A stretch of 64,000 nt of DNA from Escherichia coli (GTDB lineage: Bacteria > Pseudomonadota > Gammaproteobacteria > Enterobacterales > Enterobacteriaceae): NCBI RefSeq assembly GCF_016903815.1, contig NZ_CP069973.1; one strand, written 5' to 3'. Positions within the stretch are counted from its first letter, which is position 1. Every line of letters begins with the position of its first letter. Positions 1,391 to 6,915 of the stretch are shown in pieces. The position numbers and the translations under genes were made by a program. Below the pieces are notes generated by a model. The model was not told the DNA's origin, ran no database searches, and saw only the letters and a program-made list of their open reading frames with translations.

Positions 1391-1684
1391 ATGCATCGAA
1401 TTCTCGCTGAAAAATCGGTCAATATCACTGAGTTACGTAAAAACCCAGCTAAATACTTTATTGATCAACCGGTTGCGGTTCTTTCTAATAATCGCCCCGC
1501 AGGATATCTCTTAAGTGCCAGCGCATTCGAAGCGTTAATGGACATGCTTGCTGAACAAGAGGAGAAAAAGCCCATAAAGGCGCGCTTCCGTCCGAGTGCT
1601 GCAAGATTAGAGGAAATTACACGCCGCGCTGAACAATATCTTAATGATATGACGGATGATGATTTCAATGACTTTAAGGAATAA
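1391..1684 (+). CDS. yafN: Type II antitoxin YafN
   Basis: 97-aa ORF immediately followed (2-bp gap) by the toxin ORF; Phd/YefM-like sequence. Confidence 0.85.
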   Translation: MHRILAEKSVNITELRKNPAKYFIDQPVAVLSNNRPAGYLLSASAFEALMDMLAEQEEKKPIKARFRPSAARLEEITRRAEQYLNDMTDDDFNDFKE

Positions 1685-1686
1685 GG

Positions 1687-2085
1687 ATGCGGGTATTCAA
1701 AACAAAACTTATTCGCCTGCAACTTACAGCAGAGGAACTTGATGCGTTAACGGCGGATTTTATTTCCTATAAGCGTGACGGTATTTTGCCAGATATATTT
1801 GGTCGCGATGCACTCTACGACGACTCGTTTACCTGGCCATTAATCAAATTTGAGCGAGTTGCTCATATTCATCTGGCAAATGTGAATAATCCATTTCCGC
1901 CACAGTTGCGCCAATTCAGCAGAACGAATGACGAAGCGCATTTGGTATATTGTCAGGGGGCGTTTGATGAGCAAGCATGGTTGCTCATTGCCATTCTGAA
2001 GCCTGAACCTCATAAACTGGCTCGAGATAACAACCAAATGCATAAAATTGGAAAAATGGCAGAAGCGTTTCGCATGCGTTTTTGA
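1687..2085 (+). CDS. yafO: Type II toxin YafO (ribosome-dependent mRNA interferase)
   Basis: 132-aa ORF tightly coupled to yafN in the dinB operon. Confidence 0.85.
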   Translation: MRVFKTKLIRLQLTAEELDALTADFISYKRDGILPDIFGRDALYDDSFTWPLIKFERVAHIHLANVNNPFPPQLRQFSRTNDEAHLVYCQGAFDEQAWLLIAILKPEPHKLARDNNQMHKIGKMAEAFRMRF

Positions 2086-2094
2086 ATTTATATT

Positions 2095-2547
2095 ATGAAT
2101 AACATACAAATAAGAGATTATCAGCCTGGCGATTTTCAGCAACTATGCGCTATTTTCATTAGAGCGGTTACGATGACCGCCAGTCAGCATTATTCACCAC
2201 AACAAATTGCCGCCTGGGCGCAGATTGACGAATCTCGCTGGAAGGAGAAACTCGCGAAATCACAAGTGCGGGTTGCAGTCATTAATGCAAAACTGGTCGG
2301 CTTTATTACCTGCGTTGAACACTATATCGATATGTTATTTGTTGACCCTGAATACACCCGCCGTGGGGTTGCCAGCGCTTTGTTAAAACCTTTGATTAAG
2401 TCTGAATCCGAACTTACAGTGGACGCCAGCATAACCGCAAAACCCTTTTTTGAACGTTATGGTTTTCAGACAGTTAAGCAGCAGCGCGTTGAATGCAGGG
2501 GAGCGTGGTTTACTAATTTTTCTATGCGATATAAACCGCAACATTAA
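2095..2547 (+). CDS. yafP: GNAT-family N-acetyltransferase
   Basis: 150-aa ORF, last gene of the dinB-yafNOP operon; GNAT-like sequence. Confidence 0.8.
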   Translation: MNNIQIRDYQPGDFQQLCAIFIRAVTMTASQHYSPQQIAAWAQIDESRWKEKLAKSQVRVAVINAKLVGFITCVEHYIDMLFVDPEYTRRGVASALLKPLIKSESELTVDASITAKPFFERYGFQTVKQQRVECRGAWFTNFSMRYKPQH

Positions 2548-2791
2548 ATCCAGCTTGCAATGAAAATAACGCCCGCCTGGTATGTGCGCGTTTTCTTATT
2601 CCACAAACTGCAAGGAGGTAAATCATGACAAATCCTTTATCAATGACTCTTTGCAGACCTTTCCAGGATTAATTCTTTTTTCTTGCCCTGGATTCGTCTG
2701 CCATTTCCTGATTTTTATATTTATATACTCTAAATAATTCGAGTCGCAGTACATGCAACTTGAAGTATGACGAGTATAAATGGAATGATAC

Positions 2792-2994
2792 ATGGGCAAA
2801 TATATTCGTCCCTTATCCGATGCGGTATTTACCATCGCATCTGATGACCTGTGGATCGAGAGTTTAGCGATTCAACAATTACACACCACGGCAAATTTAC
2901 CCAACATGCAGCGCGTAGTAGGGATGCCAGATTTACACCCCGGACGCGGCTACCCGATTGGCGCAGCGTTATTCTCTGTTGGTCGTTTTTACCC
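2792..2994 (+). pseudogene. ykfJ: RtcB-like RNA ligase N-terminal fragment
   Basis: Short ORF with RtcB-like motif ([15 protein letters not shown]) that then runs out of frame; 3' boundary approximate. Confidence 0.55.
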
Positions 2995-3346
2995 GGCAAG
3001 ACGTCGCGGTAACGGTGCTGGAAACAGAAACGGGCCGCTACTCTGACACGCTGCGTTCGGCGCTGATTTCTCTGGATGGCGATAACGCATGGGCATTAAG
3101 CGAAAGTTGGTGCGGCACTATTCAGTGGATTTGTCCGAGTCCGTATCGGCCTCATCATGGGCGCAAAAACTTGTTTCTGGGCATGCTAACAAGCGGCTGG
3201 CGCGATTGCTGATTGCCTGGACGCTGGAACAACAGCAACAGGAAAATAGCGCGGTGCTGAAATCGCGGCGGCGAATGTTCCATCACCAGATTGAACGTGG
3301 CAACCCGAGACGGACATTTACAGGGATGGCTTTTATCGAAGGATAA
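2995..3346 (+). pseudogene. prfH: Peptide-chain-release-factor homologue, disrupted
   Basis: PrfH-like segments split between two frames (ORFs 2958-3212 and 3089-3346); fused to the RtcB fragment by an apparent deletion. Confidence 0.55.
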
Positions 3347-3402
3347 TGAAGGATGAAACTGCCGGAAGGCGATTAAACGCCATCCGGCAGCAAATCAAAT
3401 AA

Positions 3403-4860
3403 TTACTTCGCCGGAATTTCTTTCAGCAGCTCAGTCAGCAGTGTCCAGTAATGACCTACGCTTTCGATGTGAACTTGCTCATCCGGAGAGTGTGGACCGG
3501 TGATTGTTGGCCCGATAGAAACCATGTCCATTTCCGGATACGGTTTTTTGAACAGACCACATTCCAGGCCCGCGTGGATAATCTGGATGTTCGGCGTCTT
3601 GTTGAACAGACGCTGATAAGTTTCACGTACCAGATGCATCACCGGAGAATTAGCGTCCGGCTGCCAGCCAGGATATGCGCCTTTCGCTTCGGTTTTCGCG
3701 CCAGCCAGTTTACCCAGCGAATCCAGCATGCTCACCACGTAGTCTTTACCGCTGTCGATCAGAGAACGGATCAGGCAGTGAATTTCTACGTTATTGTCAG
3801 TCATGGTCACCACACCGACGTTCAGGGAGGTTTCCACCACACCTTTTGCCACATCGGAATTGCGGATCACACCGTTCGGGGTGGCGTTCAGCAGACGAAT
3901 AAAGGTATCGCGAGATTTCGCAATCAGGGCAGCTTTATCGTTCGCAACAGAGTCCAGCAGCAATGCCAGATTTTTCTCTTTCTCTGCCAGCTCGTTTTTC
4001 AGGATCTCCTGATAGGTATTCACCAGAGATTTCAGGGCGTCGACTTTATCAGCTGCGACAGCAATGGTCGCAAAGGCTTCACGCGGGATGGCGTTACGCA
4101 GTGTGCCACCGTTGAAATCGATAAGGCGCAGGTCCAGCTCTTCTGCATGACCCGCCAGGAAGCGCACCAGCAGTTTGTTGGCATTACCCAGGCCAACGTG
4201 GATTTCACCGCCGGAGTGACCGCCTTTCAGGCCTTTTAAGGTTAACTTGAAGGTTTCAAAACCAGCTGGAACCGCTTCACGATCTAAATGCAGGTTGGAG
4301 GTGAAGTCGATACCCCCCGCGCAACCCATGTAGATTTCACCTTCCTCTTCGGAGTCGGTGTTAATCAGAATATCAGCCTGCAACCAGTTGCTCTGTAAGC
4401 CAAAAGCACCATCCATACCGGCTTCTTCGGTCATGGTCAGCAGCACTTCCAGCGGGCCGTGAACCACGTTTTCGTCAGCCAGAACAGCCAGCGCAGACGC
4501 CATACCAATGCCGTTATCCGCACCCAGCGTGGTGCCGCGCGCTTTAACCCATTCGCCATCAATATAAGGCTGGATAGGATCTTTAGTGAAGTCATGCACG
4601 GTGTCGTTATTTTTCTGCGGCACCATATCGAGGTGGGCCTGCAAGACGACTGGTTTACGATTTTCCATACCTGCGGTAGCAGGTTTACGAATCAGGATAT
4701 TACCTACCTGATCGCGTTCGACATGGAAACCTTTCTCTTTTGCCCAACCAACAATGTATTCAGCGAGTTGCTCTTCATGATAGGACGGGTGAGGAATAGA
4801 ACAGATTTTGGCAAAAATATCCCACAGCGGCTGTGGAGATAATTGAGACAGTTCAGACAC
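3403..4860 (-). CDS. pepD: Cytosol non-specific dipeptidase (peptidase D)
   Basis: 485-aa ORF; M20-family peptidase sequence, recognised as PepD. Confidence 0.95.
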   Translation of the reverse strand: MSELSQLSPQPLWDIFAKICSIPHPSYHEEQLAEYIVGWAKEKGFHVERDQVGNILIRKPATAGMENRKPVVLQAHLDMVPQKNNDTVHDFTKDPIQPYIDGEWVKARGTTLGADNGIGMASALAVLADENVVHGPLEVLLTMTEEAGMDGAFGLQSNWLQADILINTDSEEEGEIYMGCAGGIDFTSNLHLDREAVPAGFETFKLTLKGLKGGHSGGEIHVGLGNANKLLVRFLAGHAEELDLRLIDFNGGTLRNAIPREAFATIAVAADKVDALKSLVNTYQEILKNELAEKEKNLALLLDSVANDKAALIAKSRDTFIRLLNATPNGVIRNSDVAKGVVETSLNVGVVTMTDNNVEIHCLIRSLIDSGKDYVVSMLDSLGKLAGAKTEAKGAYPGWQPDANSPVMHLVRETYQRLFNKTPNIQIIHAGLECGLFKKPYPEMDMVSIGPTITGPHSPDEQVHIESVGHYWTLLTELLKEIPAK

Positions 4861-5120
4861 GTTAAGTCTCCTTGTCGATCACCCGCAAAACAGTATTGCA
4901 GGTCACAGGGTTAGCAGAAAATGTTGTCAACACAAGACAGGCTTGCGAGATATGTTTGAGAATACCACTTTATCCCGCGTCAGGGAGAGGCAGTGCGTAA
5001 AAAGACGCGGACTCATGTGAAATACTGGTTTTTAGTGCGCCAGATCTCTATAATCTCGCGCAACCTATTTTCCCCTCGAACACTTTTTAAGCCGTAGATA
5101 AACAGGCTGGGACACTTCAC

Positions 5121-5579
5121 ATGAGCGAAAAATACATCGTCACCTGGGACATGTTGCAGATCCATGCACGTAAACTCGCAAGCCGACTGATGCCTTCTGA
5201 ACAATGGAAAGGCATTATTGCCGTAAGCCGTGGCGGTCTGGTACCGGGTGCGTTACTGGCGCGTGAACTGGGTATTCGTCATGTCGATACCGTTTGTATT
5301 TCCAGCTACGATCACGACAACCAGCGCGAGCTTAAAGTGCTGAAACGCGCAGAAGGCGATGGCGAAGGCTTCATCGTTATTGATGACCTGGTGGATACCG
5401 GTGGTACTGCGGTTGCGATTCGTGAAATGTATCCAAAAGCGCACTTTGTCACCATCTTCGCAAAACCGGCTGGTCGCCCGCTGGTTGATGATTATGTTGT
5501 TGATATCCCGCAAGATACCTGGATCGAACAGCCGTGGGATATGGGCGTCGTATTCGTCCCGCCAATCTCCGGTCGCTAA
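5121..5579 (+). CDS. gpt: Xanthine-guanine phosphoribosyltransferase
   Basis: 152-aa ORF with PRTase motif ([11 protein letters not shown]). Confidence 0.95.
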
Positions 5580-5586
5580 TCTTTTC

Positions 5587-5619
5587 AACGCCTGGCACTG
5601 CCGGGCGTTGTTCTTTTTA
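5587..5619 (+). terminator. Probable rho-independent terminator after gpt
   Basis: GC stem (caacgcc…ggcgttg) followed by a T-run. Confidence 0.5.
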
Positions 5620-5670
5620 ACTTCAGGCGGGTTACAATAGTTTCCAGTAAGTATTCTGGAGGCTGCATCC

Positions 5671-6915
5671 ATGACACAGGCAAACCTGAGCGAAACCCTG
5701 TTCAAACCCCGCTTTAAACATCCTGAAACCTCGACGCTAGTCCGCCGCTTTAATCACGGCGCACAACCGCCTGTGCAGTCGGCCCTTGATGGTAAAACCA
5801 TCCCTCACTGGTATCGCATGATTAACCGTCTGATGTGGATCTGGCGCGGCATTGACCCACGTGAAATCCTCGACGTCCAGGCACGTATTGTGATGAGCGA
5901 TGCCGAACGTACCGACGATGATTTATACGATACGGTGATTGGCTACCGTGGTGGCAACTGGATTTATGAGTGGGCCACCCAGGCGATGGTGTGGCAACAA
6001 AAAGCCTGTGCGGAAGAAGATCCGCAACTCAGTGGTCGTCACTGGCTGCATGCGGCTACGTTGTACAACATTGCCGCCTATCCTCATCTGAAAGGAGATG
6101 ACCTGGCCGAGCAAGCGCAGGCTTTGTCAAACCGCGCCTATGAAGAGGCCGCTCAGCGTCTGCCGGGCACCATGCGGCAGATGGAGTTTACCGTACCCGG
6201 CGGTGCGCCCATCACCGGCTTTTTGCATATGCCGAAAGGCGATGGCCCGTTCCCGACAGTATTAATGTGTGGTGGTCTGGATGCGATGCAGACGGACTAT
6301 TACAGCCTGTATGAACGTTATTTTGCGCCGCGCGGCATTGCGATGCTGACTATTGATATGCCGTCGGTGGGCTTTTCTTCAAAATGGAAGCTCACCCAGG
6401 ACTCCAGCCTGTTGCATCAGCACGTCTTAAAGGCGCTGCCTAACGTACCGTGGGTAGATCACACTCGCGTCGCGGCCTTTGGTTTCCGTTTCGGCGCTAA
6501 CGTTGCCGTGCGTCTGGCATACCTTGAATCGCCGCGTCTGAAAGCGGTTGCCTGTCTTGGTCCGGTAGTTCATACCCTGTTGAGTGATTTTAAGTGCCAG
6601 CAACAGGTGCCGGAAATGTATCTTGACGTTCTGGCGAGCCGTTTGGGGATGCATGATGCTTCCGACGAAGCGTTGCGCGTGGAGCTGAATCGCTATTCAT
6701 TAAAAGTGCAAGGATTGCTGGGACGTCGCTGCCCAACGCCAATGTTATCAGGCTACTGGAAGAACGATCCGTTCAGCCCGGAAGAGGACTCACGCTTAAT
6801 CACCTCATCATCTGCTGACGGTAAATTGTTAGAGATCCCATTTAACCCGGTGTATCGGAATTTTGACAAAGGTCTTCAGGAAATCACCGACTGGATTGAA
6901 AAACGATTGTGTTAA
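5671..6915 (+). CDS. frsA: Fermentation/respiration switch protein (esterase)
   Basis: 414-aa ORF recognised as FrsA. Confidence 0.9.

Follow-up and report, generated by a model that had tools for sequence, protein, structure and literature searches.

Introduction

Colicin E3 and related toxins cut 16S rRNA between A1493 and G1494, and some strains of Escherichia coli are equipped to repair the damage. In the intact rtcB2-prfH operon, PrfH takes up the A site in ribosomes that carry a cut in the decoding centre and frees the nascent peptide via its GGQ motif, and the RNA ligase RtcB2 reseals the 16S rRNA after this release (PMC9304027; PMC9223846; PMC13166195). An earlier note on the DNA studied here described an intact pair as thought to form an RNA-repair and ribosome-rescue module; experiments published in 2022 have since put that function on a firm footing (PMC9304027, PMC9223846). 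The module, as found in E. coli ATCC 25922 and CFT073, encodes an RtcB2 of 379 residues and a PrfH of 204 residues, the stop codon of the one gene overlapping the start codon of the other, and it confers protection against colicin E3 (PMC9223846, PMC9304027). EcRtcB2 carrying the substitution H294N is inactive in vivo; in PrfH the GGQ domain spans residues 108-161, the rRNA-recognition domain is made up of residues 2-98 and 180-204, and Q122 mutants abolish function (PMC9304027).

The same locus, between yafP and pepD, is decayed in E. coli K-12, where only ykfJ (b0235), a fragment of rtcB2, and prfH (b0236) are found. The loss of about 1000 nt in K-12 and O157:H7 was described by Baranov et al. 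2006 (PMC1586002) and restated by Tian et al. 2022 (PMC9304027) and Maviza et al. 2022 (PMC9223846); strains of the K-12 type, with this deletion alone, derive no colicin E3 protection from the locus (PMC9223846). 4-Azaleucine has been reported to induce K-12 ykfJ (PMC3516279), so transcription of the locus is not shut off.

A homologous operon in Pseudomonas aeruginosa has the order PA5471.1, armZ (PA5471, RtcB-like) and PA5470 (prfH), and its RtcB2 is approximately 60% identical (our locus L070). Experiments there have examined the leader as an attenuator that controls armZ and PA5470 through ribosome stalling, and ArmZ is also an anti-repressor of MexZ (PMC12057347). Attenuation relieved by ribosome stalling has been shown only for P. 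aeruginosa (PMC12057347, PMC13041342).

Results

Setting and annotation of the locus

The window, by which we mean the whole stretch of 64,000 nt that was analyzed, begins with the E. coli segment lafU'-dinB-yafN-yafO-yafP-remnant-pepD-gpt-frsA, as judged from the map of open reading frames (ORFs) and public records. The remnant at 2792-3346 is placed between yafP and pepD by both the ORF map and the record of strain 7/2, in agreement with the earlier note, and that note's three short overlapping ORFs in two frames are all present on the plus strand, with each of the three peptide strings it had quoted found in their translations (Table 1).

Table 1. Features of the rtcB2-prfH remnant and its upstream region; positions are counted from the first letter of the window.
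Feature	Position	Strand	Description
Ribosome-binding site of leader mini-ORF, CTGCAAGGAGG	2608-2618	+	very strong; site proper 2612-2618; also 5' arm of stem I
Stem I	2608-2617 pairing with 2647-2656	+	from predicted fold; 3' arm inside mini-ORF
Leader mini-ORF	2625-2672	+	15 codons, MTNPLSMTLCRPFQD and stop; intact in window
Stem II, putative attenuator	2653-2716	+	GCAGAC 2653-2658 with GTCTGC 2696-2701; U-rich tract 2709-2716
Short dispersed repeat, presumed ERIC/IRU	2719-2778	+	between attenuator and rtcB2 start; boundaries approximate
rtcB2 remnant	2792-2998	+	codons 1-69 of 379; RefSeq 207-bp partial pseudogene in strain 7/2, identical sequence
ORF1	2792-3046	+	84 aa; same frame as ORF3
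ORF2	2958-3212	+	84 aa; frame differs from ORF1 and ORF3
Deletion 1 junction	2992-2998	+	1027 bp lost (L003 4451-5477); imperfect 7-bp microhomology CCCGGCA / CCCGACA
prfH remnant A	2994-3184	+	codons 32 to ~95; in frame in ORF2
ORF3	3089-3346	+	85 aa; frame shared with ORF1
Deletion 2 junction	3181-3184	+	169 bp lost (L003 5664-5832); GCAT microhomology
prfH remnant B	3185-3346	+	codons 152-204 and original TAA stop; in frame in ORF3
Inverted repeat CTGCCGGAAGGCG-ATTAAA-CGCCATCCGGCAG	3359-3390		between convergent prfH and pepD ends; read from sequence

The window and E. coli strain 7/2 (NZ_CP023820) agree at every base over 871 bp around the remnant (100% identity), and for that strain PGAP annotates the rtcB2 piece as "RNA ligase RtcB family protein", a partial pseudogene of 207 bp, and the prfH piece as [quoted passage not shown]. 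Both pieces are therefore already flagged as pseudogenes in RefSeq; the pseudogene locus is known and annotated, and the window carries a more decayed allele of it, one common among E. coli. The PGAP note on the strain 7/2 pseudogene has been copied from the P. aeruginosa armZ/PA5471 gene.

The inverted repeat that follows prfH is probably a terminator hairpin shared by prfH and pepD; it was missed by the terminator scan because there is no T-run there, and two weak terminator-like sites from that scan were given no weight. A promoter scan found no sigma-70 consensus promoter for the operon, and an Rfam search of 2400-3500 at a permissive threshold found no known RNA family.

Family identity of the pieces

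Profile searches with NCBIfam resolved what Pfam could barely see: the fragments are so short that Pfam was nearly silent, giving a sub-threshold RtcB match on ORF1 and none on ORF2 or ORF3. Residues 1-69 of ORF1 match positions 1-69 of the models for PrfH-associated RtcB (NF007153, E=1.5e-30; TIGR03073, E=2.7e-28), and of the two segments in the prfH frames, one covers profile positions 32-93 (E=6.6e-24) of TIGR03072 (release_prfH) and the other 151-200 (E=7.5e-14). All of these scores lie far below the cut-offs for full-length members, at 106.5 bits against 407 for NF007153 and 99 against 271.8 for TIGR03073, where intact E. coli RtcB2 scores 636 bits, and at 84.6 and 51.7 bits against 166.65 for TIGR03072.

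The 69 residues kept from RtcB2 are identical to the intact E. coli N-terminus at 67 positions, the two substitutions being N3K and F60L. Descent from the rtcB2 gene is evident from the orthologous position, the N-terminal homology and the presence of the same upstream leader. The earlier note had recognized an RtcB-like N-terminus and PrfH segments from the letters alone, and had named unrelatedness of the ORFs to RtcB and PrfH as the result that would overturn its reading; the alignment shows them to be related, with a DNA identity of 96-98%.

Two deletions account for the structure of the remnant

As the intact reference we used the locus of E. coli strain 503829 (L003), in which rtcB2 occupies 4244-5383 (379 aa) and prfH 5380-5994 (204 aa), so that the stop codon of the first and the start codon of the second overlap at 5380-5383; this locus is orthologous to that in the window and has the same flanking genes and the same leader. 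K-12 (L002) served as a second reference. Alignment of the remnant with L003 by BLAST gave three collinear blocks without gaps, broken only by two deletions, the junctions of which were read base by base against L003 and K-12, mapping the endpoints of both deletions and the shift of frame.

Deletion 1 takes out RtcB2 residues 70-379 together with PrfH residues 1-31, and joins codon 69 of rtcB2 to codon 32 of prfH with the two parts mutually out of frame. The overlapping stop and start codons of the intact pair lie inside the lost segment, and the two-gene operon structure is gone with them. The open frame of rtcB2 continues out of frame through prfH sequence as far as a stop at 3044-3046, resulting in the 84-aa ORF1. 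K-12 has the same 1027-bp deletion with an identical junction, and likewise keeps RtcB2 codons 1-69 and begins prfH at codon 32.

Deletion 2 is absent from K-12, and of the two it is the window alone that has lost these 169 bp of prfH, and with them the GGQ region and the reading frame. The deletion takes out PrfH residues 96-151, including GGQ at 120-122, and as its length is 3x56+1 it accounts for the change of frame between ORF2 and ORF3. We also considered a small frameshifting indel as the cause and rejected it: the BLAST blocks are free of gaps, the frame changes at the 169-bp deletion, and no small indels were found elsewhere in the remnant in the comparison with L003. The proposal of a fused remnant with an internal deletion and a frameshift thus stands as far as fusion by deletion is concerned; a separate point frameshift does not, and there are two deletions, of 1027 and 169 bp, in place of one. 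Over the remnant common to both, K-12 and the window differ at 15 of 555 positions.

What the remnant has lost

The invariant motifs of RtcB2 all lie beyond residue 69, at positions 73-298 of our alignment A2. Lost with them are NDIGCG (D74, C77), GGGNHF (H137), VHSGS (H168), HN (H239) and HGAGR (H294, the nucleotidyl-accepting histidine). In PrfH, remnant A corresponds to part of the rRNA-recognition domain (domain limits from PMC9304027), but a complete domain in one frame is not present, as residues 1-31 are gone and the two surviving pieces are in different frames. Altogether the window allele keeps 69 + 64 + 53 codons and, in contrast to the intact module with its active sites, no catalytic residue of either enzyme. 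With these residues gone, the remnant is unable to repair or rescue ribosomes damaged by toxins of the colicin E3 type; the loss of function follows from published mutant data combined with the deletions, the endpoints and the missing catalytic residues seen here.

Codon differences between the window and the intact allele were counted as synonymous to non-synonymous and amount to 13:6 in the remnant, 32:1 in pepD and 26:3 in dinB. The ratio in the remnant is consistent with relaxed constraint, bearing in mind that the counts are small and that part of the divergence predates the deletions.

Distribution of the alleles in E. coli

The frequency of each state was determined in a set of 5426 complete E. 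coli genomes. Junction 1, scored with an 80-bp probe across the junction matching over at least 80% of its length, was found in 2662 genomes (49%), and the 1027-bp segment that it lacks in 2675. Junction 2 was present by junction probe in 658 genomes (12%), and the corresponding 169-bp segment in 4723. The two sums (2662+2675=5337 and 658+4723=5381) nearly cover the set. Roughly half of the genomes have an operon of intact length, approximately 37% the single deletion of the K-12 type and approximately 12% the double deletion. The nesting of junction 2 within junction 1 rests on the count sums and on two examined examples (L001 and L004). Other states of decay also occur, with insertions of IS1 at the locus in other strains.

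Strain A1_181 (L004) provides a second background for the double-deletion allele: it has both junctions, lacks yafNO and carries the long form of the dispersed repeat described below. Its remnant has the same length as that of the window, 555 bp, and differs from it at 17 of these positions; the allele, having both junctions in common despite these differences, is therefore either old or has been moved by recombination. Identical junctions at both deletions favour common descent of deletion 2 over its recurrence.

A conserved leader mini-ORF upstream of rtcB2

A leader mini-ORF with a strong ribosome-binding site lies approximately 165 nt upstream of the rtcB2 start and is unannotated in the records of strain 7/2, K-12 and 503829. 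To place it, we assembled 83 rtcB2 loci, consisting of 80 fetched species-representative loci and three earlier ones, from Escherichia, Klebsiella, Kosakonia, Providencia, Proteus, Morganella, Serratia, Pseudomonas, Achromobacter, Cupriavidus and others; an ORF containing GGQ lies directly 3' of rtcB2 in 76 of the 80 fetched loci. Across Proteobacteria, 76 of the 83 loci carry, 110-340 nt upstream of rtcB2, a mini-ORF that begins with ATG, is 8-20 codons long and contains an LC[RG] core; the corresponding figures are 0/83 on the reverse strand and 1/83 after shuffling. In three more loci the core is a variant, IC, FC or NC, in which TTGCAG is retained. By a simpler definition, which asks for a short ORF that lies 100-300 nt upstream of rtcB2 and has a strong ribosome-binding site, the leader is present in the window and in 76-80 of the 83 loci. 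It precedes rtcB2-prfH in most of the Enterobacterales, Pseudomonas and Betaproteobacteria examined.

The codons of the core are fixed, with CTT for leucine in 63 of 64 distinct leader sequences and TGC for cysteine in all 64, and a copy on a Klebsiella IncC plasmid has the same CCTTTGCAGG in another reading frame. We therefore place the conservation of the leader at the level of nucleotides or RNA; conservation of a "TLCR" core at the peptide level was considered and rejected on the same two grounds.

The leader ORF of P. aeruginosa shares with that of the window the CTTTGCAGG core and a downstream complementary segment. The leader of strain PA7, MIQFSTLCRLRLA, has both Q3 and F4, and PA5471.1 has been described with Gln3 and Phe4 (PMC13041342). 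By this sequence likeness, the mini-ORF in the window is the counterpart of the PA5471.1 leader peptide. The two systems differ in that the structural genes are dead in the window, and in that the E. coli leader is known here from its sequence.

A putative attenuator

Two alternative helices can be drawn for the leader transcript. The columns of stem I are 90.8% paired in alignment A3; both of its arms are nearly invariant and no covariation was detected for it in this alignment, so that the argument for stem I is one of complementarity. Stem II has an inner helix in which CCAGG at 2663-2667 pairs with CCTGG at 2687-2691, and its core helix was recovered when an RNAalifold consensus was computed for 34 loci spanning many genera. 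Pairing in this helix reaches 95.6%, compensatory changes affect 3 of its 6 pairs, and none of 500 shuffles attained the covariation score observed. The general arrangement, a C(T/C)TTTGC(A/G)G core in the ORF followed by a complementary G(G/T)CTGCC and a U-rich tract, recurs through alignment A3.

Stems I and II are mutually exclusive because the 5' arm of stem II overlaps the 3' arm of stem I. Mutual exclusion of this kind is the layout expected of an attenuator, and by analogy with PA5471.1 (PMC12057347) we infer that stem II would act as a terminator and that the attenuator may work in E. coli. The sole experimental hint of attenuation in E. coli is the reported 4-azaleucine induction of ykfJ (PMC3516279). 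Leader and attenuator are perfectly conserved in the four E. coli alleles compared, irrespective of whether the operon is intact or dead.

We regard it as an even question whether 2608-2716 is E. coli's version of a sensor that is widely conserved, responds to translation stress or to damaged ribosomes, and is homologous to PA5471.1. The parts of such a sensor may be the leader ORF, the strong ribosome-binding site, which pairs with the invariant CUUUGCAG codons, and the competing, covarying stem downstream. The literature we covered, which did not extend to the paper on PA5471.1 by Morita et al. 2009 (J Bacteriol), contained no paper that ties the leader to rtcB2-prfH outside Pseudomonas, and searches on rtcB2 with a leader peptide or on the E. 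coli leader peptide sequence returned nothing relevant.

A dispersed repeat between attenuator and rtcB2

Between the attenuator and rtcB2, the window has an insertion of approximately 55 bp (55-60) that is absent from Escherichia locus L009. ERIC sequences, also called IRU, are dispersed intergenic repeats of approximately 127 bp, imperfectly palindromic and present in many copies per genome. We take the insertion to be an internally shortened member of this class: the full form found in K-12 is repeated across the genome in E. coli, the median being 12 places, and the short form in the window folds as a hairpin. No other copies of the short ERIC end were found within the window. The full form lies upstream of rtcB2 in K-12, where the window has the short one; K-12 and A1_181 have 72 more bases at this site. 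A sub-threshold Rfam match to isrH at 2714-2780 scored 26.8 bits where the gathering score is 45; the ERIC repeat accounts for this match, and we rejected isrH as an identity for this segment.

Discussion

The bases at 2792-3346 are almost certainly what remains of the rtcB2-prfH ribosome-repair operon of E. coli, a pseudogene remnant without function. The sequence of events that we propose would begin with the 1027-bp deletion, the older of the two and common to K-12, O157:H7 and about half of E. coli, which would have fused rtcB2 codon 69 to prfH codon 32; the 169-bp deletion, in approximately 12% of genomes, would have come later, taking most of the PrfH GGQ domain and shifting the frame. 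The microhomologies suggest the mechanism for both, and we infer the order as well as the mechanism. Since the leader and attenuator of the operon have stayed intact, translation stress probably still induces transcription of the remnant, presumably with no useful product.

That intactness could be read in another way, with the locus persisting through a regulatory role of its stress-sensing leader transcript, as a stress-induced RNA or as read-through antisense to pepD, and the coding remnant a mere passenger. The perfect conservation of leader and attenuator among the four alleles, dead or intact, and the conservation of the structure across genera would fit such a role; however, conservation within E. 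coli does not exceed what an overall identity of approximately 97% would lead one to expect, the inverted repeat at 3359-3390 stands between prfH and pepD, no evidence for any target was found, and neutral persistence is the simplest reading. We consider a regulatory role of this kind very unlikely.

It is also hard to credit that the remnant codes for a small protein whose function is new or residual, be it the 84-aa product of RtcB2 residues 1-69 and 15 out-of-frame residues, or a C-terminal fragment of PrfH. The ORFs of 84-85 aa are still open and could be translated, the leader and the ribosome-binding context upstream of rtcB2 are intact, K-12 ykfJ is reportedly inducible by a translation inhibitor (PMC3516279), and the allele has been kept in 658 genomes. 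Against this, every catalytic residue is gone, the 69 N-terminal residues make up a piece of a single fold, and the ratio of non-synonymous to synonymous changes is far above that in neighbouring genes. The longer PrfH fragment of K-12 went to inclusion bodies on expression, according to a reviewer of Baranov 2006 (PMC1586002), and deletion of the K-12 remnants gave no colicin E3 phenotype (PMC9223846). Moreover, the locus has gone on decaying, with the second deletion here and IS1 insertions in other strains. There is next to no chance that chance ORFs, or errors of sequencing or assembly, mimic the deletions: we found no supporting evidence for such an artefact, and against it stand family E-values of 1e-14 to 1e-30, identical junctions in 2662 and 658 independently assembled complete genomes, and the 555-bp remnant in two divergent backgrounds with 17 site differences.

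Reading the locus as a pseudogene remnant means that, in common with K-12 and about half of the E. coli sequenced, this strain is without the RtcB2-PrfH defence against ribotoxins of the colicin E3 type, and that its allele is one decay step beyond that of K-12, with the GGQ domain lost too. Junctions 1 and 2 provide simple markers with which the state of this defence locus can be typed across E. coli. If the leader is the sensor we propose, induction of the repair operon by ribosome stalling would be ancestral to the module and general in it, not something peculiar to the regulation of MexXY, and in E. coli lineages whose operon is dead the sensor would still be in working order. The conservation of leader and attenuator far beyond Pseudomonas makes stalling-regulated ribosome repair directly testable in E. 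coli.

A conserved leader upstream of rtcB2

The unannotated leader ORF upstream of rtcB2 (see the table) is preceded by a strong ribosome-binding site, and the region around it holds two complementary segments that are mutually exclusive. This leader is homologous to PA5471.1, the leader peptide of the armZ operon in P. aeruginosa. A mini-ORF of the LC[RG] form lies 5' of rtcB2 in 76 of the 83 loci surveyed, across Gamma- and Betaproteobacteria; its conservation is at the nucleotide level, and the CTTTGC core hardly varies in codon choice (Leu is CTT in 63/64, Cys is TGC in 64/64).

Features flanking the rtcB2-prfH remnant in the window
Feature	Position	Strand	Remarks
Leader region	2608-2716		
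Leader ORF	2625-2672	+	15 codons
Dispersed repeat, short form	~2719-2778		ERIC/IRU type; between attenuator and rtcB2 start
yafN-yafO comparison	1391-2085		Compared with L003 2494-3998 (strain 503829) and L004 1-829 (strain A1_181)
GC-rich inverted repeat	3359-3390		CTGCCGGAAGGCG...CGCCATCCGGCAG; between convergent prfH and pepD ends

Variation in and around the remnant

The twice-deleted remnant is not uniform: the window (2792-3346) and strain A1_181 (L004 1148-1702) have both deletion junctions in common, and 17 of the 555 remnant positions differ between them. With 9 differences from an intact allele, the A1_181 remnant is nearer to that allele than to the one in the window, and this points to either old alleles shuffled by recombination or recurrent deletion.

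The dispersed repeat varies as well, with a full form in K-12 and A1_181 that is 72 bp longer (L002 3201-3272 in K-12), and the Escherichia locus L009 is without it. Judging from the lengths of the pieces, every combination of repeat form with the 169-bp second deletion seems to be present among E. coli genomes. Both the window and K-12 carry the toxin-antitoxin pair yafN-yafO. Strains 503829 and A1_181 lack it, and in their annotations dinB and yafP share 4 bases; the pair is an insertion/deletion polymorphism adjoining the rtcB2-prfH locus. At the other end, the inverted repeat probably acts as a terminator in both directions or forms a REP-like hairpin.

Database records

The PGAP note on an E. 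coli rtcB2 pseudogene (L001 3243-3449, NZ_CP023820.1) mentions “compromised ability for drug-inducible mexXY expression” on mutation; this wording is a carry-over from P. aeruginosa armZ and is inapplicable to E. coli. The 24 kb record NZ_CP012736.1 (L007) of Shigella flexneri 1a is typed as a plasmid and contains the chromosomal segment from yafO and yafP through the rtcB2/prfH region to pepD. Its match to RtcB2 has only 76% identity (tblastn) and the genes there are unannotated; the record is probably a chromosomal contig mis-assigned as a plasmid, with another decayed allele.

A mobile copy

The Klebsiella pneumoniae IncC plasmid NC_021667.1 carries rtcB2 and prfH as an intact pair (L005 1349-3212) that has a leader of its own, MQNTSTSFAGLVR; sul1 lies directly downstream. 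Leaders starting with MQNT, as on this plasmid, are also found in Achromobacter (L079, L085) and P. fuscovaginae (L084), suggesting a second leader type. The carrier is a conjugative resistance plasmid, and the ribosome-repair module is therefore mobile.
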